Source: Candidatus Parcubacteria bacterium (lineage in GTDB: Bacteria > Patescibacteriota > Saccharimonadia > UBA4664 > JBIOIQ01). Taken from it: a DNA stretch of 64,000 bases. Shown one piece after another: positions 2,941 to 49,479 of the stretch. Where the stretch lies: NCBI GenBank assembly GCA_963718875.1, contig OY970378.1, forward strand, positions 132,396-196,395. The letters are read 5' to 3'. Each line of letters opens with the position of its first letter. Positions within the stretch are counted from its first letter, which is position 1. The position numbers and the translations under genes were made by a program. The notes below the pieces were generated by a model. It worked only from the letters and a program-made list of their open reading frames with translations. It had not been told where the DNA came from and did no database searches.

Positions 2941-3882
2941 TTTTCCTGTCTCCAATTGATTAATTAAGTCAGCTTGGTGGAGGGCAGCAGCGGTGTTTTG
3001 CTGTCTTAGGTAAACTTCGCGCAGTAGCTTGTGGCTCTCTAGGTTGGCGGGGTCGGTTTGAGCTGCTTTAGCTAAGGCTGTTTCGGCTTCTTTAAGTTTG
3101 GGTGGGTCGTTGGGGGCCAAAATAAGGTTGATTCGGCCTAAAAGGACTTGATCGGGAACCATTAGTTGAGGCTGATTTATTAAAATGGCTCTAGAGCTGC
3201 GTATAAGCCCGCTAGAGTAGAGTTGGTATGCCAGCGCTGGTTTCCCTTGCTTGGCTTGTTTAAGCGTGTGTAGGGCTCGAGGTGAGGTTACAGAGCCTAT
3301 CAAATCGTTCAAACGCACAGTCATGTTGTTAACGGCATAACATAAGCCAAGTTGCACTTGAGCTTCTGGGTTGTGAGTGTCTATGGCTAGGGCAGTTCGA
3401 GCGGCTATTATTGCACTATCCCCTCTCCCCTGTTCTAGCTCAAGCTCGGATTTGGCTATCAGGGCTGCTTGGGATTTATTGGCCTGAAGTACGTCTTCGA
3501 GTACCTTTCCAGCTTGCTTTAGCTGCCCTGATTGACGGTAGATGGTGACAATCTGCATGCCACTCTCCCCTATCGGTAATGTTTTCAGCTCGCGAGCGGC
3601 ATCATTTGGTCGATTAGCCTTAAGGTAGGCGCTGGCTAACAACTGCTTGTAGTTGTGGTTGGCTGGAGCCAGAATAGTAGCTACCTGAAAATCAGCGATG
3701 GCCTGAGTAGTGTCACCCTGACTTAGTCTGGTTTGTGCTTGGGCTACAAGTTTGGCAGCCCGAGCATTAGATATGGGCGTAGCTACAATTATCAGGAGAG
3801 CTATTAGTGCGCTGACTCCGATTATTATGTACCACATATGGGCTTTATTTTTGGGCTTGGCTGATTGCTTGGATTTGCTCAT
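2935..3882 (-). CDS. membrane-anchored tetratricopeptide (TPR) repeat protein
   Basis: 315 aa. N-terminal TM helix WYIIIGVSALIALLIIVA, then repeated A/L/Y-rich TPR-like helices. Confidence 0.6.
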   Translation of the reverse strand: MSKSKQSAKPKNKAHMWYIIIGVSALIALLIIVATPISNARAAKLVAQAQTRLSQGDTTQAIADFQVATILAPANHNYKQLLASAYLKANRPNDAARELKTLPIGESGMQIVTIYRQSGQLKQAGKVLEDVLQANKSQAALIAKSELELEQGRGDSAIIAARTALAIDTHNPEAQVQLGLCYAVNNMTVRLNDLIGSVTSPRALHTLKQAKQGKPALAYQLYSSGLIRSSRAILINQPQLMVPDQVLLGRINLILAPNDPPKLKEAETALAKAAQTDPANLESHKLLREVYLRQQNTAAALHQADLINQLETGKI

Positions 3883-6496
3883 CTAACTTTGATAGTAACA
3901 ATTTGGCCTCGACTTGGCTATCACGAGTTTCTTGAACTACGCTGGCGGGGGCGGAAGAAACGTAACGCTCGTTGGCCAGGCGGGCGTCTAAACTATCTAG
4001 GTAAGCCTGCTTATCTGCCCTCATTTTTGACAACCTGGCTTTTCGGGCACTAATCAACGCATCGTCGGCTTGAATCCATGCTGGAGCGCTACTCCCGAGG
4101 TACAGACCACTCCCCTGCTCCACTAGTTTGATCTCTGTTACCCTTGCAAGATGTTTAATTAAATCTGCGTATTGAACCAGTTTTGGCTCAGTTGTGAGGA
4201 TGGTGGGCCTATCTAGCTTTTCTTCCGTTGCAATGGCTCTGATTTGGAGGGTTGTTTCTTGAATACGGTTAAAATCTTCAACTAAGCTTATATTAGCCGA
4301 ATTGTTAGAATCCGATTCCGGCCAAGGGCTAACAATCAGATCTGCTTTTTGCCACGGCATATTTTGCCAAATGGCCTCTGTTACGAAAGGCGCGGTGGGA
4401 TGAAGCAGTTTTAAAACTGTCTCTAACCCGTAAACTAAGAGGTCGTGATTAGGTGAAATCTTGGATGCCTCAACATACCAGTCGGCAAAATCGTCCCAAA
4501 GCAGAGCGTAAACCATCTGGCCGGCTTCGGAAAAGCGGTAGCTATCGATTGCTTTGGTAACATTCTGGACTGCTTGGTCGAGTTGGTATTTGATCCAGTG
4601 GTCGGCTGGGGCGTTGAGCTGTGGTTCGGCAGGTGTGTAATCGGCTGGCAGTTTGGCCAAGATGAACCTGGCAACATTCCATAGTTTGTTACAAAAATTG
4701 CGGTAGCCTTCAATTTTTTCTTTTCCGAGTGAGCCATTATTCCCGGGTGTAATCCCAATGGTTAGTGCTAAACGAAGAGCATCGGTGCCGTATGTGGCGG
4801 TGTATTCCAGAGGATTAATAACGTTTCCTTTAGATTTACTCATTTTTTTACCTTGTGCATCGTTGACCATGCCCCATAGGTAGACGGTTTTAAAGGGAGG
4901 CAGTTTAAAGCGATAATAACTAAACATCACCATCCGGCTCACCCATAAAAATATAATGTCGCGAGCAGTAGCCATTACGCTGGTGGGGTAAAACTGCTCA
5001 AAATCACCGGTGGCCATGAGGGTAGCGTAAGGCCATTGACCGCTAGAAAACCAAGTATCGAAGGTATCGGTTTCGGTCTCGTAATTATTTTTGCCATAGT
5101 AATCAATGGCTTCATCCTCATTGAAGGCAATGATGTAGGGTTTTTTGGTGGTATCAGAAGAGGCATTGTAATAGATGGGGATAGTTATTCCAAACCAGTT
5201 TTGGCGGCTAATGTTCCAATCGCGTAGGTTTTCCATCCAATCCAAGTAGACTTTTTCGTAACGCTTGGGGACTATTTTGATCTCACCATCCTTAACGGCC
5301 TTGATGGCTGGCTGTTTGAGTTCGGCCACCTTAAGCCACCACTGCTCAGTAACTAGTGGCTCTATTAGGGTGCCACAGCGGTCGTGAAAGGAAACGCTAT
5401 GCTTGTAATCCATTTCAACATGGTCAATTAACCCCCTTTCCTCAAGGTCATGGGCAACTTGCTCTCTAGCTTCGGCTACAGGCATGCCGGCGTATTTACC
5501 TGTTAGGTTGGTTAGCAGTCCGTCTGTCCCAATGGCTTGTTTGACCTCCAGGTCGTGACGTAACCCCATTTCCCAGTCGTTGGGGTCATGTGCAGGAGTA
5601 ACCTTAACTACACCTGTACCAAAGGCTGGGTCAACAAAGTCGTCTGCAATAACCTTGAGCTTGAATTTTCCAAGCAGGCCTTCGGCTTCAATCTCTTGGC
5701 CAATATACTGCGTGTAGCGCTCGTCCTTGGGGTTTACAGCAATGGCGGTATCACCAAATTTTGTTTCAGGCCGGACAGTAGCAAGTATAAACGGGCCGTA
5801 TTTGATGTAATATAACGGGTCAATTTGCTCACGATACTTGATTTCTAGGTCGCTAAAGCCGGAGCGGCAATGAGGGCACCAGTTAACTATGCGATTGCCG
5901 CGGTAAATTAAGCCATCATCGTGCATTTGCTTGAAGGTTTCATAGACGGTACGGACGATGTCGTCGTCCAAGGTGAACTTAAAACGGCTCCAATCGACGC
6001 TAAAGCCCAGGCTGCGGAGTTGAGCTGTTACATTGGCCATGTTCTTTTTTGTAAAAGCTAAGGCACTTTGATAAAACTGCTCACGACCGAGGTCAAATCG
6101 ACTTTTACCCTCTTTGGCCAGCTCGCGCTCGTAGACCACTTGAGTTTCGATACCAGCGTGGTCAGCTCCAGGGAGCCACAAGGTTGGATCCCCTTTCATG
6201 CGGTGGTATCTAGCCATAATGTCCTCGACCACATACATAACGTGGCCAGTGTGCAGGTCGCCGTTGGCATTAGGCGGTGGCATGATTACACTAAACGGCT
6301 CTCGATCAGGTATTGAGTTGTGAGTTGTGAGTTGTGAGTCATTTGTGCTTATCTCTCGACTCGCTTGAACTGAGCCTGTCGAATGGTCGACTCTTGACTC
6401 TTGACTCGAGGTGGGCTTGAAGGCGCCAGAATCTTCCCACATTTTATAAATGTCGGCCTCGTATTTGGCCGGTTCGTAACTTTTTGGTAACTCCAT
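3845..6496 (-). CDS. valS: valine--tRNA ligase (ValRS)
   Basis: 883 aa. HIGH motif (PPPNANGDLHTGH), KMSKS motif (KMSKSKGN), class I aaRS editing and anticodon-binding regions, C-terminal coiled coil. The N-terminus carries an extra ~30-aa low-complexity insert encoded by a tandem-heptamer palindromic segment (6300-6420). Confidence 0.92.
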   Translation of the reverse strand: MELPKSYEPAKYEADIYKMWEDSGAFKPTSSQESRVDHSTGSVQASREISTNDSQLTTHNSIPDREPFSVIMPPPNANGDLHTGHVMYVVEDIMARYHRMKGDPTLWLPGADHAGIETQVVYERELAKEGKSRFDLGREQFYQSALAFTKKNMANVTAQLRSLGFSVDWSRFKFTLDDDIVRTVYETFKQMHDDGLIYRGNRIVNWCPHCRSGFSDLEIKYREQIDPLYYIKYGPFILATVRPETKFGDTAIAVNPKDERYTQYIGQEIEAEGLLGKFKLKVIADDFVDPAFGTGVVKVTPAHDPNDWEMGLRHDLEVKQAIGTDGLLTNLTGKYAGMPVAEAREQVAHDLEERGLIDHVEMDYKHSVSFHDRCGTLIEPLVTEQWWLKVAELKQPAIKAVKDGEIKIVPKRYEKVYLDWMENLRDWNISRQNWFGITIPIYYNASSDTTKKPYIIAFNEDEAIDYYGKNNYETETDTFDTWFSSGQWPYATLMATGDFEQFYPTSVMATARDIIFLWVSRMVMFSYYRFKLPPFKTVYLWGMVNDAQGKKMSKSKGNVINPLEYTATYGTDALRLALTIGITPGNNGSLGKEKIEGYRNFCNKLWNVARFILAKLPADYTPAEPQLNAPADHWIKYQLDQAVQNVTKAIDSYRFSEAGQMVYALLWDDFADWYVEASKISPNHDLLVYGLETVLKLLHPTAPFVTEAIWQNMPWQKADLIVSPWPESDSNNSANISLVEDFNRIQETTLQIRAIATEEKLDRPTILTTEPKLVQYADLIKHLARVTEIKLVEQGSGLYLGSSAPAWIQADDALISARKARLSKMRADKQAYLDSLDARLANERYVSSAPASVVQETRDSQVEAKLLLSKLDEQIQAISQAQK

Positions 6497-21371: not shown

Positions 21372-23051
21372 ATGGCTAAAAAAATATTTTACGATGACGA
21401 AGCGCGTACTCGCGTTTTGGCCGGTGCTAAGGAGCTTTACGACGCTGTAAAAGTTACAATGGGGCCTAAAGGACGAAATGTTGTAATTAGTAAAAGCTAT
21501 GGCGGGCCGACCGTAACTCATGATGGTGTAACTGTTGCGAAAGCTGTCGAAATTGATGAAAACAGCAAGGACGCATCAAGCTTGGGTAAGGGCATTGGGG
21601 CGGAGTTGGTAAAACAAGCAGCCAGCAAAACCAATGATGTGGTTGGAGATGGTACGACCACCGCTACAATCTTGACTTACCAAATTTTGGCTGAGGCAAA
21701 TCGCTTAATTGCGGCCGGGCACAACCCAATGGACTTGAAAAAGGGTCTTGATAAGGCATCTACGGATATTTTGTCGCGAATTAATAGCATGGCCGAAAAA
21801 ATTTCTGGGAACAAAGAAAAGATTGCCCAGGTTGCAACTGTGTCAGCTGGTGATCCGGAAATAGGTGAGTTAATTGCCGACGTTATTGAGGCTGTTGGTG
21901 ATGAGGGTTCGGTGACTGTGGAGCAATCTCAAACCACTGGGCTAGAAAAAGAAGTTGTCGAAGGTTTTAAAATTGACCGTGGTTACGTGAGCCCTTACAT
22001 GGTAACTGACGCGACTCGTATGGAGGCAGCTTACGAAAAACCATTAATCTTAGTAACCGACAAGAAAATTAGCTCCATTCAAGAGATTCTGCCATTACTT
22101 GAAAAGCTTGCTCAAAGCGGCAAAAAAGAACTTATCATAATTGCCGAAGATGTTGATGGTGACGCATTGCCGAATTTGGTGTTAAACCGACTTAAAGGCG
22201 TGTTTAATACCCTGGCTATTAAGGCGCCAAGTTTTGGTGACCGGCGCAAGGCTATTATGGAAGACATTGCAGTGCTAACAGGGGCTACGGTGATTTCCGA
22301 AGACCAAGGTTTGACCTTTGAAAACGCCGGCTTGGAAGTGTTAGGAAGCGCCCGCAAAATTATTGCTACTAAAGACGATACAACTCTCATTGAAGGCTAT
22401 GGAGACGAGGGTGAAATTAAGGCCCGCATTGAGCAAATTAAGGCTCAGGCTGAGAATGCCACTAGCGAATTTGAGAAAGAAAAGTTGGAAGAACGCTTGG
22501 CAGCTCTTGCTGGCAAAGTAGCGGTCATAAAAGTGGGTGGGGCAACTGAAACTGAGATTGAGGAGAAGAAGTTTCGCGTAGATGATGCTGTGGCGGCTAC
22601 TAAAGCGGCTGTGGCTGAAGGTATTGTTCCTGGCGGCGGCGTTACACTTGTGGACTTGTCTAAAACCATAAGCTTAGCCGATGCTCGGGTAACCGATAGT
22701 CACGCGGCCGGAGCGATGATACTGAAACAAGCCTTGCTGGCTCCTTTTCGACAGCTAATGGTGAACTCTGGTCTTAATGCTGAAGAAAAACTTGCTCAGG
22801 TGCTAAAGAGCAATTCGTTGGGGATGGGCTTTAATGTCAATGAAGCTGAGGAGTTGATTAATCTTAAGACCCAAGGGATTGTTGACCCCGCTAAAGTTAC
22901 CCGCGAAGCTATCGTCAATGCTGTTTCGATCGCTGGAACGGCCATGACCATGGGAGCGCTGGTGGTTGATCTCCCCGAAGAGAAGTCGGCCATGGGCGGC
23001 GGTGGTGGCGGGATGGGTGGTATGGGCGGCGGAATGGGCATGGACTACTAG
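21372..23051 (+). CDS. groEL: chaperonin GroEL
   Basis: 559 aa. Cpn60 with GDGTTTATIL and C-terminal GGM repeats. Confidence 0.97.
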   Translation: MAKKIFYDDEARTRVLAGAKELYDAVKVTMGPKGRNVVISKSYGGPTVTHDGVTVAKAVEIDENSKDASSLGKGIGAELVKQAASKTNDVVGDGTTTATILTYQILAEANRLIAAGHNPMDLKKGLDKASTDILSRINSMAEKISGNKEKIAQVATVSAGDPEIGELIADVIEAVGDEGSVTVEQSQTTGLEKEVVEGFKIDRGYVSPYMVTDATRMEAAYEKPLILVTDKKISSIQEILPLLEKLAQSGKKELIIIAEDVDGDALPNLVLNRLKGVFNTLAIKAPSFGDRRKAIMEDIAVLTGATVISEDQGLTFENAGLEVLGSARKIIATKDDTTLIEGYGDEGEIKARIEQIKAQAENATSEFEKEKLEERLAALAGKVAVIKVGGATETEIEEKKFRVDDAVAATKAAVAEGIVPGGGVTLVDLSKTISLADARVTDSHAAGAMILKQALLAPFRQLMVNSGLNAEEKLAQVLKSNSLGMGFNVNEAEELINLKTQGIVDPAKVTREAIVNAVSIAGTAMTMGALVVDLPEEKSAMGGGGGGMGGMGGGMGMDY

Positions 23052-23089
23052 ATTCGGGCCGGTCTTTTGGTGCATTACTGCGTTGAGGC

Positions 23090-23290
23090 TTGCGATGCTC
23101 GCTCAACGTACCATTAAGTACGTCTCGCTGTGCTTCTCGCCTCGCCTAGTACTGCATCCAAAATACCAACCCTTGGGGGATTGGATGACTGTGCGAAGTT
23201 TTGCCGTAGGTTTAGATACGGCTCACTCCGGCCTTCAATATCTCCTTGTACTGCATCAAAGTACACCTTTCTTGAAGCTTGCCGTACCAT
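23090..23290. repeat. post-gene repeat R1 (CAACGTACC-ATTAA-GTACGTCTC and GTACTGCATCCAA palindromic modules)
   Basis: Diverged copy of the segment found after rpoD (49480-49600). Confidence 0.5.
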
Positions 23291-23338
23291 TTATTGCCTG
23301 AGCCTGTCGAAGGCCCTTCGACTATGCTCAGGGAGTAA
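23291..23338. repeat. family-2 palindromic element (ATTGCCTGAGC-CTGTCGAAGGCC-CTTCGAC-TATG-CTCAGG)
   Basis: Full palindrome. Half-copies at 36884-36910, 37027-37054, 53104-53131, 55067-55145. Confidence 0.55.
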
Positions 23339-23443
23339 TCGCAAAACACAAAAAGAGGCCACTCGTGGCCTCTTTTTGTGTGCTGATCATAAAGTTGTGA
23401 TGGAGGGCCGCCTGAGTGGCGGCCCTCCATGCGTGGGCGTGGT

Positions 23444-23896
23444 CTAGGCGCAGTGATCGCCGCCTTTAGAAATGGGGTCCGAGACTCCGGATTTGACGAG
23501 GATGAACGGCTGGTTGGCTGCCCGAGCCTCAGCTGTTTCTAACCCGCGAGGGCCGGATCGAGTTTTTTCGTACTCGAGACAGTGTTGGCTGGGGGCGAAG
23601 CGGCTTGGACATCTAGTCGGATCCATGACCGCATCGTTGTCGTCGTTGGCAGCGTTCCACTCACCCAGTGTCATGAGTGGCGCGCCACAGGTCGAGCATC
23701 TCTCGAGCATGGCTACCTTGCCACCCCGTCCGAGAATCGCTCGTTGAGCTTCATTCTCCGAGACAACATGTTCGTCTCCCGAGACAGTGTCTGTCATGAT
23801 CCCTTCTTCCCGCTGACTGGTCAGCTTGGTGGGGGAGCCGATGCTCCCGGTGGTTTGCAGGAGGGGTCGCCGTTGGGCATAACCTTCCTGAGACAT
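23444..23896 (-). CDS. hypothetical protein with CxxC pair (GC-rich islet)
   Basis: 150-aa ORF. Overlapping alternative frames exist (24006 MATQ... ORF with AGGAGA RBS and its own CxxC). Gene model uncertain. Confidence 0.3.
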   Translation of the reverse strand: MSQEGYAQRRPLLQTTGSIGSPTKLTSQREEGIMTDTVSGDEHVVSENEAQRAILGRGGKVAMLERCSTCGAPLMTLGEWNAANDDNDAVMDPTRCPSRFAPSQHCLEYEKTRSGPRGLETAEARAANQPFILVKSGVSDPISKGGDHCA

Positions 23897-24013
23897 CGTG
23901 GCTTACCTGGCTTAGCGGCAAGCATAAAACCGAGACCGCTGTCCGCTACAACGAGTTCTCGGCCGCAGTTTGCACACAACCCTTTGTTGGGTACTTGGGT
24001 AGCCATCACTCTC

Positions 24014-24238
24014 CTAGCTGGCCGGTCCGTATGGCCGGCCGGCGTCGTGGTAGCAGTCGAGGTGGTAGTGCTCGACGCGTTCCCAAACACCGTCGTTATA
24101 GACGTTGCAGATGACCTGCTGGAGCTTGGACTTGGCCCGGAACTTAACCGGGAGCCGGCAGATGGCGCAGGTGGCCGTGTTTCCGGCTTCGATCAGGCGC
24201 GTTACTGCGCGGCTAGTGAAGATTGACTGTACTGCCAT
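24014..24238 (-). CDS. small Cys/His-containing hypothetical protein (74 aa)
   Basis: GGGAGG RBS 5 nt upstream of ATG. CAICRL...HLDCYH suggests a small zinc-binding fold. Confidence 0.4.
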   Translation of the reverse strand: MAVQSIFTSRAVTRLIEAGNTATCAICRLPVKFRAKSKLQQVICNVYNDGVWERVEHYHLDCYHDAGRPYGPAS

Positions 24239-24486
24239 GTATCCTCCCGCTCGGACGTTGGGTGAGCCCAGGATACACTAATTTGACAAAAAAACCAAGT
24301 ACATAGGGGCAAGTACGATACCTGTCGTTTCCGTTTCATTGACAAGAAATTGAATAGCTGATAGGGTTCATATCCAGATTGAATTTAGAAGTCATTAGTT
24401 ATGCTTTAGGTTCCTCAGTGACTCCCTGCCATTCAGAAAGGTGATCCGGTTGCAAGGGAGCCACTGAGGCTTCGAAAAACAAACAC

Positions 24487-25086
24487 ATGAAAAGAGGACA
24501 AGTGAGAATCCGATACGCTCTGATGTCTGTTGCTTTGGTTGTTGCGGCTCTTGCCGTCCAGGCGTCTCCGGCTACGGCTGACACGCTCTGTAACGGTGCT
24601 TCTGTCGTCGCTCGCGTGGGGACGGTTGTGGTACCTGCTGGCGCCAAGTGCGTCTTGGGGGCTTCAGACAAGCCGACCTACATCACTGTGGCTCCCGGCG
24701 GCACTCTGGCTATGCAAGGAACCCACGCCACGCAAGTGGTATCGCGGGGTGCGACGACAATCGCCAACTCCATCGTTTCCGGCACTGTGGTACTAAGTGG
24801 TATTTCCAACGAATCCAGTCGCATTTGCGGCACAATCATTGGCGGTTACTTGGTGGTGAGTAACAACTCATCACCTGTGGATGTGGCCCCAACCGAATCG
24901 GACGAGTGTCCGATAAGCAACTTTGTGGCCGGCGGAGTATTCGTGTCGGGTAACCGAGGGCCGACCTTCTTCAATGCCCTGTCGATCTTTGGGCCCATCT
25001 ATTGTTGGGGTAACAATCCAGCGCCGGTAGTGTGGGCTGCAACTACTCTCCCGCCTCACCAGTTCTACTGGCAGTGTGCCCGGTAG
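24487..25086 (+). CDS. secreted hypothetical protein (signal peptide, Gly/Thr/Val-rich beta-type)
   Basis: N-terminal MSVALVVAALAVQASPATA signal. 199 aa. Followed by a strong terminator. Confidence 0.6.
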   Translation: MKRGQVRIRYALMSVALVVAALAVQASPATADTLCNGASVVARVGTVVVPAGAKCVLGASDKPTYITVAPGGTLAMQGTHATQVVSRGATTIANSIVSGTVVLSGISNESSRICGTIIGGYLVVSNNSSPVDVAPTESDECPISNFVAGGVFVSGNRGPTFFNALSIFGPIYCWGNNPAPVVWAATTLPPHQFYWQCAR

Positions 25087-25105
25087 CACAACGATTTGAT
25101 TGCTG

Positions 25106-25154
25106 CCCGCGTGGAGCCTCCCTTTAAACGGTGGCTCCACGCGGGAGTTTTTTT
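25106..25154 (+). terminator. rho-independent terminator (13-bp stem CCCGCGTGGAGCC plus T9)
   Basis: CCCGCGTGGAGCC...GGCTCCACGCGGG followed by AGTTTTTTT. Confidence 0.8.
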
Positions 25155-25175
25155 AAAGAGGATTTAACCCGAGGG

Positions 25176-25204
25176 TTGACACTCGAACCTAGTAGGCATA
25201 ATAT
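25176..25204 (+). promoter_or_regulatory. strong sigma-70 promoter (TTGACA-17-TAATAT)
   Basis: Consensus -35, 17-nt spacer, near-consensus -10. No ORF with RBS follows. Confidence 0.6.
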
Positions 25205-25210
25205 CAAAAT

Positions 25211-25820
25211 ATCAGTTTTGCTTATGCTAAGCTGCGAGGTTAGAAAGTTTTTTAGCCGTTATTAACAGACAAGAGAGCAATTGTGTGGGCGGGTTATGAG
25301 CTTTAGAGAGCAGCTAAGGTTTATAACCCGTCCACAAGAAACATCGGACGCGGTAGCGGCAGGTCTTCTGCCGCCTCGATCGCCTCCAATACCGGCAGCC
25401 GGAGCCAACTTCTCGTCCAGCGTTGTGCGAGAAGTTGGCGTTCGGTTTCCCTAGGAGGCGCCAGTTCCGACCAATAGCGGCGGAGAAAGAAGGAGGAGCG
25501 CTGACACAGATCAGCTCTGCAGCAACGTTACTCCTGGTTGCGGCGCTGTGCCGTAGCCTGGGGAGCCTACAGCTCGCAGATACCCTCCCGGTCGGCTCAC
25601 AAGCTCACTTCGCTATCGATCACCGGCGTCGGAGGTCATGGCGACGAGTCAGACTCCGCACTGGAGTCCCGTCGAGCGACAAGGGTGGGTAATCGCCATC
25701 AACAGCGGTGGCCCGCAGCGCCTGAGCGGGCCGTTAGTCTGCCCCCTCAACGCTCGCGGGCCACCGCACTAGTTCTCTCGAACTCTGTTTCGCCCCCTTT
25801 ATGGGGGCGCTTTGTTTTTA
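25211..25820 (+). ncRNA. candidate ~600-nt structured ncRNA (promoter to terminator, GC-rich, many nested hairpins)
   Basis: Begins after the promoter at 25176. Contains long hairpins (TGTGGGCGGGTTAT...ATAACCCGTCCACA, CCAACTTCTCG...CGAGAAGTTGG and others). Ends at hairpin GCCCCCTTT-ATGGGGGC plus T-run (25792-25820). Only RBS-less high-GC ORFs overlap. Confidence 0.35.
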
Positions 25821-25841
25821 TTGGGTACGAAAGCAAAAAGG

Positions 25842-25871
25842 TTGACAAGAATGTTGGGCATCATTTAATAT
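25842..25871 (+). promoter_or_regulatory. sigma-70-like promoter (TTGACA-17-TTAATA)
   Basis: Directly after the previous terminator, upstream of the 25978 ORF. Confidence 0.45.
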
Positions 25872-25977
25872 CAGTGCATCGGTTATTAGTTGTTATGCTA
25901 ATACTGTGAGGCGTGGTTAAGAGCAATTTTGGCCAGCCAAATATTGACAAAGCAATAAGAGCAAAAACACCTGGATT

Positions 25978-26262
25978 GTGGAAGGGCTCAAGTTTTCATT
26001 TATTGAAGATTTTAGCTCTTCCGCAATGCCCGGCGGGAGCGGTTTCGGTCGCATTTCGATCGGATCAGCTACTAGGGCGGTCACGTCAACCATCAGAAAC
26101 GAGGACAGCGTGTTCAAGCGAGTCACCCACAACGAGCCGGCCTTCGAGTTCGACCCCGTGGCGACCTTCTTCGACCCCCACGGCGGCGCCGGCGGGATCA
26201 ACAGGGCCATGGCCGGGATGGCCAACAGCGCGACCAACGCCTTCACCGCGCACTCGGGCTAG
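25978..26262 (+). CDS. small Gly/Ala/Ser-rich hypothetical protein (94 aa, GTG start)
   Basis: ORF followed by long hairpin GGCCAGTGTGCCGCCG...CGGCGGCACACTGGCC. Weak RBS, so model uncertain. Confidence 0.3.
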   Translation: MEGLKFSFIEDFSSSAMPGGSGFGRISIGSATRAVTSTIRNEDSVFKRVTHNEPAFEFDPVATFFDPHGGAGGINRAMAGMANSATNAFTAHSG

Positions 26263-26669
26263 CAGCCCCCGGCCAGTGTGCCGCCGCCGACGAGAATACG
26301 GCGGCACACTGGCCTTGAGATCTCAAGATCGCCTGGACGGGCGGCGCCTGAACCGGCTCCGTAGGCGAGAACGGAGCCGGTTCACGGCTTGCCACTCGCT
26401 GCAAAGTGTCGACGTCAACCAAGGAGGTCTATCGGGTAGCGATACCTGACTCCGTTTCAACACCCACCGTCATCTATCGAAGGGAACGCCTCGTGCGGGA
26501 TCCGCCCTAGAAGATGGACCTCGATGGAAGCACCTCGCCGAGGTCGCAGTTACTACAACCTGCTTTGCCGTGAAGGTGAATGCCATGGGGCAGGGAACGT
26601 CCGCGCGAGCAGTGCCACCAGGCCCTCGCGCGGACGTTCTTCACAGCTCTTATTGCCGAGTCCATCGCG

Positions 26670-26698
26670 GACCTCCTTCGGGAGGTTCTTTTCTTTTT
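26670..26698 (+). terminator. rho-independent terminator (GACCTCC-TTCG-GGAGGTT plus T-run)
   Basis: Closes the GC-rich islet just before the REP element and the pgi-like gene. Confidence 0.5.
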
Positions 26699-26767
26699 AT
26701 ATGGGGCCTAATGCCGAATGCAAGTTTGGCGCTGGGATCACTAACTGGTAGCATTCCGGCTTAGTTT

Positions 26768-26798
26768 AAGAGATCCTGAAACAAGTTCAGGATGACAC
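26768..26798 (+). repeat. REP/RPE-like element (family 1, minimal form AAGAGATCCTGAAAC-AAG-TTCAGGATGACA)
   Basis: Perfect 8-bp hairpin flanked by AGATCC and GGATGACA terminal motifs. Confidence 0.65.
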
Positions 26799-26842
26799 TT
26801 AAAATTTATGAGATAATAAACTTTAAGAAACGGAGCTTTTTT

Positions 26843-27457
26843 ATGTCAGACCCCAACTTTGCATACGTCCCTAAGCATCTGGCCACGCGAACCCACGAAG
26901 ACATGAAAGCGGTTTTAATGAGCCCTGACGCGCAAGGTCCAGCCGTACATTATTACATGATTAGAGGTGGGAGCCAGCAGCGTAATGTAACGGTGTGGGA
27001 GCCGGGTAAGGTAGGGGGTGAATATATCAAAACCTTTGGTCATTACCATGTTGGGCCCTTGGATGAAACTTATGAGATTTTGGAGGGTCAGGGGTTTGTA
27101 CTGCAGGAAAGATTGGAGGTTAACGAGGCGGGAGAAATGGTTGCAGATAGGGTAGCCGAGTTTAAAGTCATTCCCATCAAAGCTGGCGACAGCGTGTTTA
27201 TCCCGGCTGGTTCAGGTCATTTAGCTGTTAATACGGGTGATACCTACATGGTAACGACCGACGACAGCCCGGTTAATTTTGATGATTCTGACCCAAGTGG
27301 ACATCCAGGTCATGCTGATTACTCTCTGGTGAGGCAGACGCGAGGATTTGCCTACTATGTGGTGGAGCGTGATGGCGCGCCTGCCTTAGTAAAGAATCCT
27401 CATTACAGTGTTATTGCAAATGAAGACCTTGGCGGCTTATCGGTGGTAGAAGCTTGA
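26843..27457 (+). CDS. cupin-type glucose-6-phosphate isomerase (cPGI-like)
   Basis: Internal Met with GGAG RBS. TFGHYHVG and YMIRGGSQ cupin/PGI motifs. Low-GC backbone composition. Confidence 0.65.
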   Translation: MSDPNFAYVPKHLATRTHEDMKAVLMSPDAQGPAVHYYMIRGGSQQRNVTVWEPGKVGGEYIKTFGHYHVGPLDETYEILEGQGFVLQERLEVNEAGEMVADRVAEFKVIPIKAGDSVFIPAGSGHLAVNTGDTYMVTTDDSPVNFDDSDPSGHPGHADYSLVRQTRGFAYYVVERDGAPALVKNPHYSVIANEDLGGLSVVEA

Positions 27458-31214: not shown

Positions 31215-31305
<91 letters not shown>

Positions 31306-31332
31306 ATATTATTGATCTTAGTTAATTATCAC

Positions 31333-31935
31333 ATGAACCATTCAACCTATTTTGACTTGATGTCGTCCGAATTGATTCTGAAAGGTAACATTGTCGTGTT
31401 GCCTACAAATACTGTGTACGGGCTTGCGGCCAGGGCGGCAGATATATTAGCCGTAAGGCGTTTGTATGGCTTAAAAGATCGTCATCATAAACCAGGTACA
31501 ATTGTGGCAGCTAATTTGGAGCAGCTGGCAAAGCTGGGTTTAGATTTTACGATTCTAAACGATGTTAAACAGTTTTGGCCGGGAGCGGTCAGCGTAGTTG
31601 TTCCAGCTGACAAGAAATTGGATTACTTGCACCAAGGCTTAAACAGCTTGGCTGTGCGCATACCGGCAGATAAAGAATTTAGGGATTTTCTAATGGTTAC
31701 CGGGCCATTACTCACCAGTAGTGCTAATCTGCCCGGCGAGCCAACGGCTAATACGGTGGAAGAAGCCAAAAATTACTTTGGGGATCAGGTAGATTGGTAT
31801 GTGGACGGAGGGGACTTAAGCGGACGATTGCCTTCAGCATTGGTTCGGTTTACCAATGGTCAGTTAAAGGTCTTACGCGGAGAAAAACTTGCTCGAGATC
31901 TTAGGTCAAACGTTGAGAGCTTGGAGTTTATTTAA
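31333..31935 (+). CDS. tsaC: L-threonylcarbamoyladenylate synthase (YrdC/TsaC family)
   Basis: Internal Met start. VLPTNTVYGLAA motif. About 200 aa YrdC domain. Confidence 0.8.
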   Translation: MNHSTYFDLMSSELILKGNIVVLPTNTVYGLAARAADILAVRRLYGLKDRHHKPGTIVAANLEQLAKLGLDFTILNDVKQFWPGAVSVVVPADKKLDYLHQGLNSLAVRIPADKEFRDFLMVTGPLLTSSANLPGEPTANTVEEAKNYFGDQVDWYVDGGDLSGRLPSALVRFTNGQLKVLRGEKLARDLRSNVESLEFI

Positions 31936-32674: not shown

Positions 32675-32765
32675 CAAGTAAAGGGAGCCTCCCTTTTAGT
32701 GGTTATGTTAGCATTTCGAGCTCATTTCTTAAGTTAGGGAGCCTCCCTCGAATTTGTTATGCTCC
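32675..32765. repeat. paired palindromic motif element (2x GGGAGCCTCCC), second locus
   Basis: Same arrangement as 2845-2940. Marks the left boundary of the GC-rich cassette array. Confidence 0.55.
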
Positions 32766-32789
32766 GACCCAAGGCTTCAAACTCCACGT

Positions 32790-32873
32790 TGTCACCCTGA
32801 ACCGTCGGCTGACGGTTGTTTCAGGATCTCTTAATCTGGACAAGAGATCCCGGATCGTGGTCCGGGATGACAA
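32790..32873. repeat. inverted pair of family-1 REP/RPE-like elements
   Basis: Reverse copy GTCACCCTGAAC...TCAGGATCTCTT, then forward copy AGAGATCCCGGATCGTGGTCCGGGATGACAA. Confidence 0.6.
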
Positions 32874-32937
32874 GAAGAAGGTTGAAAACTTAGGTCGGGC
32901 CCCGCACCAGCCTTGGTAGACTTGGTGCGGGACGGGG

Positions 32938-33384
32938 TTAGGACGGGTCGGATTCGGGTGCCGGAGGGCGCTTGGCGAGCTCGATTTCGAGCTCGGCGAC
33001 ACATCTTTCGTGGTCTTTAACAACCTCCATGAGTAGCTCAGCTTTTTCCTGATAACGCTGGGCCTCGGCCGCGATGCGCATGTAAAGCGTTTCGATGGTG
33101 CAGTCTTTGGGGAACTGGTCGAACCCTGCGTCAAGGAGTGCGATGAAAGCATCGATAGCCTTTTTGGCTGCTTTGTACTCATGCTTGTAAAACCAACCGG
33201 GCCAGTCGGGATCGGCCTCGCAGTAGGGAACCATGAACTCCTGGAGCAGCTGAGCGTAGGGTCGAATGACGCTCCATGGCTCATTCCACGGATTGTAGAA
33301 CTGGGTGATCCTCTCCAGTGTCCACATTCCGTCTCTGATTCTTTTGAGGACGTCTCGCAGTGCCTGGGTGGGGTGAATGGTCAT
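32938..33384 (-). CDS. cassette-array paralog A1 (hypothetical, C-terminal coiled coil and Pro-rich tail)
   Basis: 148 aa, N-terminal MTIHPTQALRDVL. Shares N-terminal and C-terminal (ELEIELAKRPP...DPS) features with 33395-33811, 35444-35989 and 36119-36628. Confidence 0.6.
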   Translation of the reverse strand: MTIHPTQALRDVLKRIRDGMWTLERITQFYNPWNEPWSVIRPYAQLLQEFMVPYCEADPDWPGWFYKHEYKAAKKAIDAFIALLDAGFDQFPKDCTIETLYMRIAAEAQRYQEKAELLMEVVKDHERCVAELEIELAKRPPAPESDPS

Positions 33385-33394
33385 GGGATCTGTT

Positions 33395-33811
33395 TCAGTT
33401 GGAGTGCGAAGGGGGCGAGGAAGGACGCTTTTTGAGCTCGGTTTCGAGTCCTTTGATGCGGGCGTCCAGTTCTTTAACCTGTGACGCGAGGGACTCAGAC
33501 CAGTTTTTGTAACGGATCCTTTCGCCGGCGATTCTCATGTAGAGATCACCGATGGTAGTACCACTTGGGAGCCGATCGAATCCGGCATCTATTAACTCGA
33601 TGAAGGCGTCAAGTGCCTGTGTGAAAGTGGGCGAGTAAGGAAGTTCATGGTGCTCGCCAAGGAAAGCTTTGATGAGCTCCTGGTAGGGTGAAAACACGCT
33701 GTCGGTTGCCATGCCACCGCCTTGCATTACTGCGGCATATGCGCTACGAGAGTTTGCGTCTCTGGCTGCGACGAGCGCGTCGCGAAGTGCTTGGGTTGGG
33801 GTTAGCGTCAC
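33395..33811 (-). CDS. cassette-array paralog A2
   Basis: 138 aa, MTLTPTQALRDAL... Shares DAFIELIDAGFD...LYMRIAGE block with A1. GTG start with AAAGGAT RBS. Confidence 0.6.
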   Translation of the reverse strand: MTLTPTQALRDALVAARDANSRSAYAAVMQGGGMATDSVFSPYQELIKAFLGEHHELPYSPTFTQALDAFIELIDAGFDRLPSGTTIGDLYMRIAGERIRYKNWSESLASQVKELDARIKGLETELKKRPSSPPSHSN

Positions 33812-33978
33812 GGGTTATCTATCCTTTGGGTTGTGGATCGTGTACACGGGTTGCATCGTTGCTTCCCGACCTAAGGTTTCAAAGCTCTTTTTAAGACCTG
33901 ATCTTCGATAGTTGAAAGCTTGGGTCGGGGTTCCGCCGTGCGCTGGTTAGGGCGCAGGCAGCGGAACCTGTGGATGGG

Positions 33979-34383
33979 CTATACCGGGTGGATCTTGTGC
34001 ATACTGCACTTGAAGATGTCGATCATGGGGAACTCGGCCTGAGGGTGTTCCGCCTCGAGGTAAACTACGCCGGCCAGGTCGGAAGTCAGGTTGAGGCCGG
34101 TGGAGCTGGTAATGAAGTCACTTACCAAGTCGATGGCCATGCTGTCGTCCTGGTCCAGCTCGTACTTGCTGACGCCGAACTTGGCGGCGATCTTGCCGTG
34201 GTCGAGCTCGAACTGCTCGGTGTTGGTGTCGCGGTCGTAGTCGTTGCGAGAGCAGAGCCAGGCGCTGCGGACTCGGACGATGGCTTTGACTTGGACGCCT
34301 TGCTCTTCTCTGAGCTCGCGCTTGACGAGCGTGAGCTGCTTGGCACTGACCTTGCCGATCACCACTAGCGTGGTGGCTGCCAT
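33979..34383 (-). CDS. cassette-array gene B (hypothetical, 134 aa)
   Basis: Own conserved leader with AAAGGAAGA RBS. Flanked by the TTAGGTCGGG/CCCGACCTAAG inverted-repeat boundary elements. Confidence 0.5.
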   Translation of the reverse strand: MAATTLVVIGKVSAKQLTLVKRELREEQGVQVKAIVRVRSAWLCSRNDYDRDTNTEQFELDHGKIAAKFGVSKYELDQDDSMAIDLVSDFITSSTGLNLTSDLAGVVYLEAEHPQAEFPMIDIFKCSMHKIHPV

Positions 34384-34548
34384 GATGTTCTTCCTTTGAT
34401 CGTCGGTACACGGGTAAGCACTGTTGCTTCCCGACCCAAGACTTCAATCTTATTTACACGGGTGGAACCGATGTAGGATTTGAAAACTTAGGTCGGGGTT
34501 CCGCCGCTGTAGCCGGAGCTACAAACGGCGGAACCTGGGAATGGGTGG

Positions 34549-35226
34549 TTAGCTGGATACGCCTTCGGGTGCTGATCCCTCAACGGGTGCATCCTCGAAG
34601 GGATATGCCAAGACTCGAGCGACTTCACTCTCCAAGGTCTCGGTGCTGAAGCCCACCAGGGCACGGTCTAGGGCTTGGCTACGAAGCTTGACCTCAAGTG
34701 CCTTGAGGCGCTCCGGGATCCCGCTGCTTTGCCAGTCCCGGTAGAGGTGTTGAGCGCAGAGCATCTCCATATGGTAGTGGCTTGCAACTGCCGAGCGGAA
34801 GCCATCGGTGCCTACAGGGCTGTTGGGGTAGTTGCCGAAAATGGCGATGATGAGCTCACCGTCCTCGCCGAAGACGGCGAGAGAGAACTCGTCATCGATG
34901 TCGTAGCCAGCACCGTGACGGAATGGGAAGCCGAAGCTGTCACGACCAGGATCCGGCTGCTTGATCTCGTAGTGGAACACGATACCCATCTCGATGCGTA
35001 GCAGCTCGCCGCCCTTGTTTCGAAGGTGGCGGGTGACCACTTTGCCGCTGACAATGAAATCGAGCGTGTTGCCGAGCTTGACGAGCTCATAGGTGGTGCC
35101 ATTGATGTCGGCTGAGTAAATATCCCTCAACACTTCCTCAATGAGGTGGTGCTCAGGGCTGTGGTGGTGAATCGATCGGTAGCCAACTGCTTGGGGGTGA
35201 GCGTGGGCGGGTCGGGTGTAGGCCAT
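34549..35226 (-). CDS. cassette-array gene C (hypothetical, 225 aa)
   Basis: Conserved leader ...CCGAAAAAGGATGG-N7-ATG. Same boundary elements. Confidence 0.5.
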   Translation of the reverse strand: MAYTRPAHAHPQAVGYRSIHHHSPEHHLIEEVLRDIYSADINGTTYELVKLGNTLDFIVSGKVVTRHLRNKGGELLRIEMGIVFHYEIKQPDPGRDSFGFPFRHGAGYDIDDEFSLAVFGEDGELIIAIFGNYPNSPVGTDGFRSAVASHYHMEMLCAQHLYRDWQSSGIPERLKALEVKLRSQALDRALVGFSTETLESEVARVLAYPFEDAPVEGSAPEGVSS

Positions 35227-35349
35227 TGAAAACCATCCTTTTTCGGTTGTCGATCGGGTACACGGGTAAGCACTATTGCTTCCCGACCTAAGACTTCAAA
35301 ACTCTTTGTTGTCACCTTGTACTTGATTCAGGGTCTCTTAATCTGGACA

Positions 35350-35380
35350 AGAGATCCCGGATCGTGGTCCGGGATGACAA
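35350..35380 (+). repeat. family-1 REP/RPE-like element (AGAGATCCCGGATCGTGGTCCGGGATGACAA)
   Basis: Identical to 32843-32873. Preceded by a degenerate reverse copy. Confidence 0.6.
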
Positions 35381-35443
35381 TTTAGGGTTGAAAACTTAGG
35401 TCGGGCCCCGCATCAGCCTTGGAAGACTTGATGCGGGACGGGG

Positions 35444-35989
35444 TTAGGACGGGTTCGGCTTGGATACCGGAGGACGGGTGGCGAGTTCGGCTTCGAGCTC
35501 GGCGATGCGGGCGTTGAGGTCGTCGTTCTGCTGGCAAACCTTGCGGTGCTCGCGAGCGAGGTTGTCGAGTTGGCTGTACCGCTCTTGGAGTGAGATGACA
35601 AGGGAGTCGTGGTCTAGACGTACTGTCGCGAGCTTGGCCTCGAGCTTGGCGACGGTCTCCCTCGTGATGGCGAGCCAGTACTCTGCCTTGAAACGGTATC
35701 CTGCAGCCCACATCAGCCTGTTGTCGATGGGGTTGGTAGGGGAAAGCTCGTCGGCTCCTGAGTTTACCAACCAGATGATGCTGTTGATGGCCGCGATGTT
35801 GCGAGCTTGGGTTCCCGCGAAGTCTACCTGGGCAGCATCGATGAAGGTACGGAAGTGGCCACTGACTGTGCTGAAGATGCTGTGGTTACCCGGGTTGCCA
35901 ATTATCTGCTCAATGTTGGACTCTTGGGGGTCGGAGTCCCTGAGCGCCTTGAGGGCGTCGATGAGGGCCTGGGTAGGGTTGATTGCCAT
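35444..35989 (-). CDS. cassette-array paralog A3
   Basis: Start at internal Met (MAINPTQALIDALKALRD) with AAAAAGGACGG RBS. C-terminus ARIAELEAELATRPPVSKPNPS. Confidence 0.6.
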   Translation of the reverse strand: MAINPTQALIDALKALRDSDPQESNIEQIIGNPGNHSIFSTVSGHFRTFIDAAQVDFAGTQARNIAAINSIIWLVNSGADELSPTNPIDNRLMWAAGYRFKAEYWLAITRETVAKLEAKLATVRLDHDSLVISLQERYSQLDNLAREHRKVCQQNDDLNARIAELEAELATRPPVSKPNPS

Positions 35990-36118
35990 GGTGGCCGTCC
36001 TTTTTGGGTTGTCGGGTACACGGGTAAGCACTGTTGCTTCCCGACCTAGGGCTTCAAACGAGGTTGAAAACTTAGGTCGGGCCCCGCACCAGCTGGGTAG
36101 GCAAGGTGCGGGACGGGG

Positions 36119-36628
36119 TTAGGACGGGTCGGGTTCGGGTGAGTAAGGCTCCTGCAGAGCTGCGACTTTGGCTTCGAGTTCGGCGACGAGGAGCTTCATT
36201 TGATGACCCTCATGCCTGAGAACCTGGTTCTCGTTGCGCTCTTCCCTCAGGTGGTCTAGGTTCTCGCGGATGACCTGTCGGGCTTGGTAGAGCTCGCCGC
36301 CAACCTTCATAGCGAAGTCAGCAACCTGAGAGCCGTCAGGGAGTACCGTCAAGCCGGCCCAGATGAGCTCGAACAGGTGGTTGATGACAGCCTTGCACTG
36401 CGTGTACAGGATGTCCCTCCTGGTTTGCGAGTTCATGCCCTCGAGGTTATCCAGGATCCCACATGCCTTCCTGAACGGCAGGATGAGTTGAGCGACCTCG
36501 TAGAACATGTGGTAGGGGTCGGTGGTGGTAAGGAGCTGAACTGCTTCGGCGACGTCCAGGGTGCCGGTGTTGGCGCCAATGCGCATTTCTTCCAGCTTGG
36601 CCATCAGAGTTACGGTGGGGTTGAGCAT
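36119..36628 (-). CDS. cassette-array paralog A4 (promoter-proximal)
   Basis: 169 aa. C-terminus LVAELEAKVAALQEPYSPEPDPS. AAAGGACGAATACC-ATG leader. Confidence 0.6.
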   Translation of the reverse strand: MLNPTVTLMAKLEEMRIGANTGTLDVAEAVQLLTTTDPYHMFYEVAQLILPFRKACGILDNLEGMNSQTRRDILYTQCKAVINHLFELIWAGLTVLPDGSQVADFAMKVGGELYQARQVIRENLDHLREERNENQVLRHEGHQMKLLVAELEAKVAALQEPYSPEPDPS

Positions 36629-36699
36629 GGTATTCGTCCTTTGGGTTGTGTAGGTGCGAATGTGTCTGATTGGGCTGTTCCCAACTCAGTGCGGACAAG

Positions 36700-36790
36700 T
36701 CTATACTATTTATGCTTAAATGTCAATATAATGTAGGTAAAATGTAATATCTACAGATAGATATTTGTCAAAATGAGAATTGACAAATAC
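36700..36790 (-). promoter_or_regulatory. AT-rich promoter region of the cassette array (TTGACA boxes on minus strand)
   Basis: Reverse complement contains TTGACAAATATCTATCTGTAGATATTACAT and TTGACATTTAAGCATAAATAGTATAGAC. It is the only AT-rich stretch in the array. Confidence 0.35.
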
Positions 36791-36928
36791 AATTTAGCCA
36801 AGTAATCTATGGTTAGCCTCTCTTTCGTCGAACTATAGGAGGCACGGCGCTTTTATCGTTCGAGGTAATCCGAGAGACTCACTGAGGCCTTCGACTACGT
36901 TCAGGCAATGAGCCAGAGAATTTGGTTA

Positions 36929-36986: not shown

Positions 36987-37064
36987 ATGAGGGTTTGTTG
37001 TTCAAAGAGGGAGGACGAAGACTAACCGGGCCTTCGACTCTGCTCAGGCAATAAGGGAGAAAGA

Positions 37065-48321: not shown

Positions 48322-49458
48322 ATGCCTAAAAAAGCCGTACAGCCGAGTGAAAATGATGATGAAAAAGCCCTGCGTCCTTCGGGCGATGGCGCTGACATTG
48401 ACGCTTTAGTAGCCAGAGGGAAAGAACAGGGCTTCTTGAGCCAGCAAGAAATTTTGGCTGCCGTGGGGGATCCTGAGGAAAACGTAGAGGAGCTTGATGA
48501 CATTTATGCTGCTTTACTTGAAAACAGTATTGAAATTGCCGATAGCAAAGAGCTTACCAGCGATTGGGATGATGCGGCAGAAGCGGAGCCAGAAGCGGCC
48601 GCCATCGAGAGTGATGACTACGTTAAAGACATTGCCGACGACTCAGTACGGCTGTATTTACGCGAGATTGGTCGTGTGCCGCTTTTAACCGGCGCCGAAG
48701 AAGTTGAGCTAGCTAAAAAGATTGAGGCAGGCGATAAGATAGCCAAAGACAAGATGGTAGAAGCCAACTTGCGTTTGGTGGTGAGTATTGCCAAAAAATA
48801 CATTGGCCGTGGATTGGATTTGTTAGATCTAATTCAAGAAGGGTCGAGTGGTTTGCTGCGGGCTGTCGAAAAGTTTGATTACACTAAGGGTTATAAGTTT
48901 AGCACCTATGCTACTTGGTGGATTCGTCAGGCTATTACCCGAGCCATTGCCGACCAAGCTCGAACCATTCGTATCCCTGTGCACATGGTGGAAACCATCA
49001 ACAAGCTCATCCGTACGCAACGCCGTTTGGTGCAAGAGCTGGGTCGCGAACCGTTGCCAGAGGAAATTGCCGCTGAAATGGAAATGGATGTCGAGAAAGT
49101 TAACCACATTATCAAGATTAAGCAGGATATTGTGAGTCTAGAAGCGCCTGTGGGAGAAGAAGAAGATTCCAAATTAGGTGATTTTATTGAAGACGAAGAT
49201 AATCCTCGCCCCGAAGAACTTGCGACTTACCAATTGCTAAAGGAGCATGTTAATAACGTGTTGGCATTGCTAACCCCGCGCGAGCAAAAGATTTTGCGCA
49301 TGCGGTTTGGGCTAGAAGATGGCCGGGGTCACACTTTGGAAGAAGTTGGACAAGAATTTGGCGTTACTCGCGAGCGGATACGGCAGATTGAAGCCAAGGC
49401 GTTAGCTAAATTGCGCAAACATCGTGAGAGTAAGAAGCTCAAAGATTATTTGCGCTAG
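48322..49458 (+). CDS. rpoD: RNA polymerase sigma factor RpoD (sigma-70)
   Basis: Regions 1.2-4 present: [56 protein letters not shown]. Confidence 0.95.
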
Positions 49459-49479
49459 GGCGGCTCGCGTACTTGTCTC

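Follow-up and report, generated by a model that had tools for sequence, protein, structure and literature searches.

Positions 25176-25820 of the window, the 64,000-nucleotide (nt) stretch of DNA analyzed here, probably constitute an autonomous transcription unit, designated unit 1, that makes an RNA of ~610 nt and belongs to a family of end-clamped cassette transcripts absent from Rfam; the probability of this reading is put at about 0.6. In members of this family a structured leader can pair with the 3' end of the predicted transcript (helix P1), and a variable GC-rich cargo lies between the two strands. Because unit 1 has no open reading frame (ORF) with a coding signature, it would either act as RNA only or be a recently disabled copy; the former is favored, and the latter is the main rival. 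A preliminary description of the segment had suggested a strong promoter driving a hairpin-dense transcript without a credible ORF, reminiscent of large noncoding RNAs (ncRNAs) of the ROOL/GOLLD class.

Unit 1 lies on the plus strand between two intrinsic terminators. The upstream one (25106-25154, plus strand), located by a terminator scan, consists of a stem (25106-25118/25133-25145) and a T-run to 25154; it closes the gene of a 199-amino-acid (aa) orphan secreted protein (24487-25086) and marks the 5' limit of the unit. The near-consensus promoter already described is present 22 nt past this terminator: a sigma-70-type promoter (25176-25204) with TTGACA at 25176-25181, a 17-nt spacer, and TAATAT at 25199-25204, matching the consensus at 10 of 12 positions. 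The extended pattern TTGACA-N17-TAATATCA has an expected 0.35 occurrences in the window. Transcription is predicted to start at 25211, giving a 5' end AUCAG... followed in the folds by leader hairpins H1 (25213-25234) and H2 (25238-25257). The 5' strand of P1 (UUAACAGA-CAA-GAGAG-C-AAUU, 25264-25282) was assigned from the minimum free energy (MFE) structure and duplex energy and is homologous to the UUGACA... strand of relatives. It is followed by H3 (25283-25338), a 23-bp hairpin (25284-25306/25314-25336) with 4 G-U pairs. All stems named in the preliminary description exist, and the one given there as 14 bp is this longer helix.

The variable interior, or cargo (25339-25704), contains many hairpins, including a nested set at 25381-25462 whose core is a perfect 12-bp stem (25404-25415/25428-25439; GCCAACTTCTCG/CGAGAAGTTGGC). 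A last hairpin (25705-25767; GCGGUGGCCCGC...GCGGGCCACCGC), with 27-nt arms at 25705-25731 and 25741-25767, precedes the 3' strand of P1 (UAGUU-CUCUC-GAAC-UCUGUU, 25770-25789), which was assigned in the same way as the 5' strand and lies 30 nt from the unit end. The final hairpin and T-run were correctly recognized earlier and form the downstream intrinsic terminator (25791-25820), in which CGCCCCC-TTTAT-GGGGGCG (25791-25809; 7 G-C pairs, loop TTTAT) is followed by CTTTGTTTTT. A promoter scan found no promoter-like minus-strand site inside unit 1.

The predicted RNA is far more strongly folded than expected from its composition. The 611-nt sequence has an MFE of -298.5 kcal/mol, compared with -225.4 ± 4.6 kcal/mol for 20 dinucleotide shuffles (z = -15.8), and an independent run with 12 shuffles gave z = -9.4. 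The reverse complement is 31 kcal/mol weaker (-267.7 kcal/mol; z = -5.5). Control coding regions of the window, GC-rich island genes included, gave z values between +0.6 and -2.5; as these GC-rich coding regions fold near chance, GC content is not the explanation of unit 1 folding. The GC content is 0.58 across unit 1 and 0.63 in its interior, compared with ~0.46 in the native genes of the window, in agreement with the ~600 nt of hairpin-dense, 60% GC sequence first reported. The interior alone (25340-25770) has a z of -6.9, with an MFE close to the centroid. The leader and H3 are more stable on the sense than on the antisense strand, by 10.9 and 16.3 kcal/mol, respectively.

Unit 1 has no coding signal. 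From 25280 to 25790, the GC profile by codon phase is flat, whereas the neighboring unit has a stretch at 0.97 in one phase. The 3-base GC periodicity (sliding 25-codon index) has a maximum of 0.24, and none of 126 windows exceeds the cut-off of 0.35 used for coding periodicity; ORF-bearing relatives reach 0.38 to 0.56. The statement that the internal ORFs lack a ribosome binding site is not strictly true, as AGGAGG (25491-25496) lies before a CTG-initiated 63-aa frame (25501-25692), with a Shine-Dalgarno (SD) spacing of 3-4 nt, and GGAG(G) lies before ATG 25638 of a 44-aa frame (25638-25772), with a spacing of 2-3 nt and the ATG within a predicted stem. Neither frame has a coding signature: GC at the three codon positions is 0.66/0.63/0.77 in the ATG frame and ~0.66/0.67/0.67 in the open frame holding the CTG ORF.

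A homology search for a conserved protein encoded by an internal ORF, the result that could have overturned the noncoding claim, returned nothing credible, and the claim stands. One frame had no homologs among 5.8 billion proteins. An 89-aa frame had a single phmmer match (P0122; E 8.7e-23) among 1.84 billion representatives, which was discounted: P0122 is a 2071-aa actinobacterial-type repeat surface protein whose score was summed over 11 near-identical repeats, and a single repeat gave no BLASTP alignment with the unit 1 frame. A gene caller placed no gene at unit 1 on a public contig of the same sample, and exact-protein look-ups for strain variants of the locus matched the same sample only. 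The unit 1 RNA is noncoding or at most vestigially coding.

The family context was surveyed in the window and in 80 groEL loci. The GroEL of the window is 86% identical to that of one Saccharimonadia metagenome-assembled genome, and the best 80 GroEL loci are nearly all from Saccharibacteria, which identifies the window as part of a “Candidatus Saccharimonadia” (TM7) genome. The unit next to unit 1 is a tandem paralog, unit 2 (25842-26698, plus strand), with a promoter (25842-25871), H1/H2, P1, H3 (~25975-26028), an ORF, and a terminator (26669-26698). Its P1 strands are GCAAUAAGAGC (25952-25962) and GCUCUUAUUGC (26646-26656). Promoter spacing, leader, and first hairpin are the same as in unit 1. 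The unit 2 ORF (26110-26262, plus strand) is preceded by an SD sequence and encodes 50 aa with a GC content at third codon positions (GC3) of 0.98; the product was an orphan in protein searches.

Two further units lie in locus L016 (L numbers denote individual related loci), the GroEL of which is 82% identical to that of the window. An nhmmer profile of the leader found exactly four strong copies, at 25172 and 25838 in the window and at 10694 and 12028 in L016 (E 1e-33 to 1e-38). All four share the -35 and -10 elements, the 6-nt gap to ATCRGTT, and a common order: promoter, ATCRGTT start, H1/H2, a (U)UGACAAAGCAAGAGAGC P1 strand, H3, interior, a hairpin before the 3' strand of P1, and terminator. 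A motif in the last hairpin of unit 1 (CUCGCGGGCCAC) also occurs in L016 unit b. The pairing of H1 and H2 survives base changes among the four units, and P1 shows compensatory changes in these homology-found units (GCAAGAGAGC/GCUCUCUUGC versus GCAAUAAGAGC/GCUCUUAUUGC; AACAGA-GAGAG/CUCUC-UCUGUU in unit 1). The interiors are unalignable (54% mean column identity in a four-way alignment), and BLASTN detected no similarity to the closest units within the unit 1 interior. Weak nucleotide similarity links unit 2 to L016 unit b, but possible homology of their peptides was unsupported at the protein level. The heptamer CCGCAAU closes H3 in unit 2 (~26019-26025) and, in the 3' arm, in L016 unit b.

The same layout recurs more widely. 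An architecture scan of the window and the 80 loci, which sought strong promoters with a leader word able to pair with sequence 250-1400 nt further downstream, recovered it in L002, L005, L007, L014, L017, L064, L070, and L011; L009 emerged from a descriptor search. Perfect inverted words (5'-3', 14 nt or longer) occurred at 7 of 153 strong promoters and in neither of two controls. About 14 units are known. The consensus from MAFFT and RNAalifold over the four homologous leaders was poor, and per-unit folds together with cognate versus noncognate duplexes were used instead of a covariance model. With a 22-nt probe starting from the UUGACA-type motif, cognate P1 duplexes average -23.7 kcal/mol compared with -13.5 ± 3.0 kcal/mol for noncognate ones, and in 10 of 13 units the best partner is the cognate one. 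P1 is 11-18 bp long, and its 3' strand is always 30-97 nt from the unit end. Apart from (UU)GACA, its sequence varies by unit; P1 and H3 nevertheless stay complementary.

Of 13 units, 12 have a 5'-terminal hairpin H1 and an H3 of 20-25 bp, the sequences of which are unrelated. Whole units have z values of -6 to -15.5 in 12 cases and -3.4 in the atypical L023. Of 12 units, 11 have a leader and 8 an H3 that is more stable on the sense strand; this bias of the scaffold hairpins toward the transcribed strand indicates structure at the RNA level. Units are co-oriented with groEL and mostly 0-3 kb downstream of it (2.1 kb for unit 1). Unit 1 shows the traits of the proposed family: promoter, AUC start 6 nt past the -10 element, H1/H2, a weak P1, H3, a GC-rich interior, a terminator, and the groEL context.

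Cargo differs between members. Family interiors are ~400-900 nt long and GC-rich and give no alignment between units. In unit 2, both L016 units, L007, L064, and L011, an SD sequence precedes a complete ORF in sense orientation (30-77 aa; GC3 of 0.84-0.98), and the L070 unit carries a 254-aa ORF; the periodicity index does not exceed 0.35 in unit 1, L002, L005, L014, and L017. Given this split into ORF-bearing and ORF-less units, the scaffold frames either small-protein mRNAs or ORF-less RNAs. The cassette peptides of relatives are Gly/Ala/Asp/Pro-rich, and no Pfam domain was detected in the cassette ORFs. As native genes of the window have a GC3 of 0.42-0.52, the cargo is either compositionally foreign or selected for GC. 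Random capture of host DNA as its origin was rejected, the ORFs being complete, SD-preceded, and in sense.

A common design may be proposed from these features. A consensus sigma-70 promoter would start the RNA at (C)AUC, and one or two hairpins (H1 and H2) would cap its 5' end. The UUGACA-type segment would pair with a segment just upstream of the terminator, so that P1 encloses the whole body between the RNA ends, and the near-perfect 20-25 bp H3 would follow the 5' strand of P1, with ~400-900 nt of densely hairpinned GC-rich cargo inside the clamp. With the cap hairpin, P1 clamp, and terminator in place, neither RNA end would be single-stranded and free, so that unusual exonuclease resistance would be expected. 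H3 may be long enough to serve as a site for RNase III or a double-stranded-RNA-binding protein. In ORF-bearing relatives, the scaffold could act as a stabilizing frame for the mRNA of a small orphan protein. For unit 1, we infer transcription into a stable RNA, with possible involvement of RNase III and some function at the RNA level. The class is best read as stable end-clamped transcripts with modular coding or noncoding cargo in a hypervariable island; because about half of the relatives are evidently small-protein mRNAs, it is better termed end-clamped cassettes than a catalytic-type giant ncRNA.

Several points weigh against this reading of unit 1. Its transcript and both transcript ends are predictions from the DNA. 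Unit 1 has the weakest P1 of all members (-14.3 kcal/mol; a UUAACA variant with an internal loop), and duplex energy alone fails to set this helix apart from the noncognate background. Most members beyond the window and L016 were selected by a filter demanding 5'-3' complementarity, so P1 is partly built in among them, although the P1 position, (UU)GACA start, (C)AUC transcript start, H1, H3, structured GC-rich body, terminator, and groEL context recur without having been selected. Known members number just ~14: the matches to a degenerate leader pattern, 83 in a metagenome contig collection and 21 in a viral one, all proved by nhmmer to be chance promoter-like sequences. The unit 1 interior is about equally stable antisense (z of -6.9 versus -5.2), and whole-unit MFE favors the sense strand in just 5 of 13 units, which makes RNA-level selection on the cargo hypothetical. 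The searches made found no close homolog of the interior.

The weak P1, the interior without strand bias, and the missing interior ortholog would also fit the main rival, that unit 1 is a recently pseudogenized small-protein cassette like unit 2, its ORF lost, its scaffold intact, and with no function of its own. Unit 1 is paralogous to ORF-bearing units, lies in an island that turns over fast and is different in each relative, and retains SD-like motifs (AGGAGG before the CTG frame and GGAGG before ATG 25638). However, unit 1 retains its promoter, terminator, H1-H3, and P1 in intact form, G-U pairs being present on the sense strand, and the interior holds 63% GC in a ~46% GC genome while still strongly folded (z of -6.9). 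The ORF-less state also recurs, since four further members in other genomes are ORF-less. Decay appears unlikely as the account of unit 1, although it is the strongest competitor to an RNA-only family member. That unit 1 is instead a functional small-protein mRNA with unusual initiation, at the 63-aa CTG frame or the 44-aa frame, is much less plausible. The perfect AGGAGG and signal-peptide-like N terminus of the CTG frame, the SD-like motif of the other frame, the small orphan proteins encoded by relatives at a comparable position, and the P0122 match are in its favor, but codon-position GC is flat in the unit 1 frames and GC3 reaches 0.84-0.98 in real cassette ORFs. Furthermore, CTG is rarely used as a start codon and has an SD spacing here of 3-4 nt, the ATG is inside a predicted stem, the P0122 score is repeat-summed with a single repeat unaligned by BLASTP, and a third frame has no homolog.

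An explanation at the DNA level is similarly improbable. It holds that unit 1 is captured actinobacterial DNA or a mobile or recombination cassette with P1 as terminal inverted repeats and incidental RNA folding, and it would account for an interior that folds nearly as well on either strand, for modular, tandem units, and for an island gene 77% identical in nucleotides and 84% in amino acids to one in actinobacterial contigs of 69-73% GC. However, P1 differs in every unit beyond (UU)GACA, and a transposase or recombinase site would keep its sequence; by eye, no target-site duplications are seen in the flanks of L014, L016 unit b, and L002, and P1 as transposon terminal inverted repeats was rejected on these two grounds. 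The ORFs scanned yielded no integrase, transposase, or reverse transcriptase (RT) domain, the transcribed strand gives scaffold hairpins of clearly higher stability, and the cassette ORFs, all complete, sense, and behind an SD sequence, are unlike random capture. Least credible is membership of a conserved class of large ornate ncRNAs such as ROOL, GOLLD, or OLE, despite the length of ~610 nt, the many nested stems, the strong promoter, and GC richness in an AT-richer genome. ROOL has a conserved complex fold with six multistem junctions, three pseudoknots, and ~10 invariant nucleotides, and ROOL and GOLLD are often next to tRNAs or in prophages (PMC5737381). The tRNA nearest to unit 1 is 5.4 kb away (31215-31301), no phage genes were found among the ORFs scanned, the interiors are unalignable between paralogs and homologs, and relatives carry ORFs. 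An Rfam scan, named in the preliminary description as a check, gave no match at the gathering score or at E ≤ 10: Rfam 15 cmscan over the whole window (gathering score) and over 23000-27000 (E ≤ 10) returned no ROOL, GOLLD, OLE, raiA, HEARO, or other match to unit 1. The suggested ROOL/GOLLD likeness is not borne out, conservation being confined to the end scaffold. Seven related loci likewise had no Rfam match at the gathering score, and BLASTN of units 1 and 2 against phage and plasmid collections returned no match.

The placement of unit 1 in a GC-rich accessory island is confirmed. In relative L012 a cupin-type GPI gene lies directly 3' of groEL, and 23051-26790 is therefore a variable island in the window, where the neighbors of unit 1 are groEL, orphan genes, and the cupin-type GPI gene. 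BLASTN of the island against the 80 GroEL loci matched the o74 gene only, and the island differs in every relative. The gene at 24014-24238 (minus strand; GC3 of 0.85) encodes a 74-aa Zn-ribbon-like orphan (CxxC...HxxC) that is 84% identical in amino acids and 77% in nucleotides to a gene carried by actinobacterial contigs with 69-73% GC (L194-L197), where its neighbors are Kgd/OdhA, a Ser/Thr kinase, and MerR; sharing is limited to the gene itself. In Acidimicrobiia (L192 and L193), a syntenic core gene has a product 60-68% identical to this orphan. This looks like a recent gene transfer between Actinobacteria and Saccharimonadia. Saccharimonadia are obligate epibionts whose hosts are presumed to be high-GC Actinobacteria. 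A more far-reaching proposal is that the groEL-adjacent RNA scaffold holds exchangeable actinobacteria-like cargo as ultra-stable RNA, serving as host- or phage-directed effectors or decoys, with the cargo of unit 1 acting as RNA only; this is speculative and rather improbable.

Several other features were observed in the window and its relatives. The segment at 24341-25154 is another promoter-to-terminator unit, with TTGACA-17-TAGGGT, a long 5' hairpin (~24407-24466), the 199-aa signal-peptide orphan ORF, and the strong terminator upstream of unit 1. A clear end clamp was not found in it, and a sliding 20-nt duplex scan for end pairing in other island units was too noisy in GC-rich sequence. 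An element of ~110 nt (core CAACGTACC-N4-AGTACGTC, then ACTGCATCCAA) occurs at 23073-23190 and 49479-49590, directly after the stop codons of groEL and rpoD (sigma-70, 48322-49458), with a GC-rich island after each copy; part of it is also found 3' of groEL in L185-L189, and it could be a 3' untranslated region (UTR) RNA element or an island insertion site. A 32-nt repeat (GGCCTTCGACT..CTCAGGCA) has four copies (23313-23344, 36886-36917, 37029-37060, and 55120-55151), sits in a palindromic context at 23290-23335, and may be a repetitive extragenic palindrome (REP)- or miniature inverted-repeat transposable element (MITE)-like element. The region 32700-36700 contains four to five repeated modules (direct-repeat families D2-D7 and D12; spacing of 565-852 nt; inverted TTGAARNCTTAGGTCGGG pairs), and its minus-strand ORFs are GC3-rich orphans without a Pfam domain. 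The tRNA call at 31215-31301 overlaps the 5' end of the longest Sua5/YciO/YrdC-family ORF (31237-31935), the true start of which is probably further downstream.

Among the relatives, the L023 unit (3825-4500) has a 144-aa multi-pass membrane ORF with its SD sequence inside a perfect 14-bp helix with the transcript 3' end, and no H3; it is probably a different, hok-like case. The motif (CC)GCAAU(UAUU) lies between the 3' strand of P1 and the terminator in L002, L007, L014, and L017 and just past the terminator in L005; no pairing partner of this motif was found. Locus L185 (minus strand), from a Saccharimonadia species with the same groEL synteny, has two consensus-promoter units (8252-7690 and 7621-~7300) in the gene-free downstream kilobase, one GC-rich with a long 5' hairpin and the other an RNA-like unit of ~300 nt ending in a terminator, with no called gene in either.

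If the proposed reading is true, genomes of candidate phyla radiation (CPR)/Saccharibacteria hold a recurrent class of hyper-structured transcripts of 0.6-1 kb missing from Rfam, with a simple, testable design rule: ends clamped, 5' end capped, and body free to vary. It would also offer a handle on how reduced-genome episymbionts stabilize and express fast-evolving accessory genes of foreign composition and would identify a hypervariable hot spot 3' of groEL. The adjoining gene, which has a counterpart of 77% nucleotide identity in Actinobacteria of 70% GC, is a concrete locus for studying gene flow to or from presumed hosts. For annotation, “large ncRNA” calls in islands should be checked for a scaffold with cargo before they are likened to ROOL or GOLLD.

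The units resemble several known systems in part. With ROOL, GOLLD, and OLE (PMC5737381; PMC12286853) unit 1 shares size class, hairpin density, and GC richness relative to the genome, but it has no Rfam match and the family interiors are unalignable. The flanks of rRNA operons (RNase III processing stems) and of retron msr-msd (a1/a2) also pair into a closing helix; in contrast, P1 is just 11-18 bp, no RT domain was found in the flanking ORFs scanned, and no conserved mature product is known. Integron cassette arrays are comparable hot spots, where short modular units, most of them orphan, stand in tandem and contain palindromic elements. Unlike integron cassettes, however, each family unit has its own promoter and terminator, and the inverted strands vary in sequence; no integrase domain was found among the ORFs scanned, and attC sites were not searched for.

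The dual-function S. aureus RNAIII is a multi-hairpin RNA of ~500 nt or more with long-range end interactions and possibly a short peptide, all of which recall the family, whereas the family gives no evidence of target pairing, has unconserved interiors, and includes tandem paralogs with unrelated bodies. The end-pairing logic of hok-type mRNAs is comparable to the clamp, as in hok/sok a folded, stable transcript pairs its 3' end with the 5' region around a small ORF. The family differs in lacking a hydrophobic toxin ORF and in unit length (600-1000 nt), unit 1 has neither an ORF coding signal nor an antisense promoter, and the SD sequence is hidden in the 5'-3' helix only in the atypical L023 unit. 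In mRNAs controlled by 5'-UTR/3'-UTR pairing, such as S. aureus icaR and B. subtilis hbs, a long-range helix likewise joins the leader to the 3' end before the terminator, with a presumed effect on RNase access, stability, or translation. The typical family P1, in contrast, leaves the SD sequence uncovered, and the clamp is a modular scaffold with a UUGACA start, a 20-25 bp hairpin, a 5' cap, and interchangeable, often noncoding cargo. In the literature searched, no publication describing such units in Saccharibacteria or Patescibacteria was found; what would be new here is the end-paired, stabilized transcript design as a modular, family-level scaffold in CPR bacteria.

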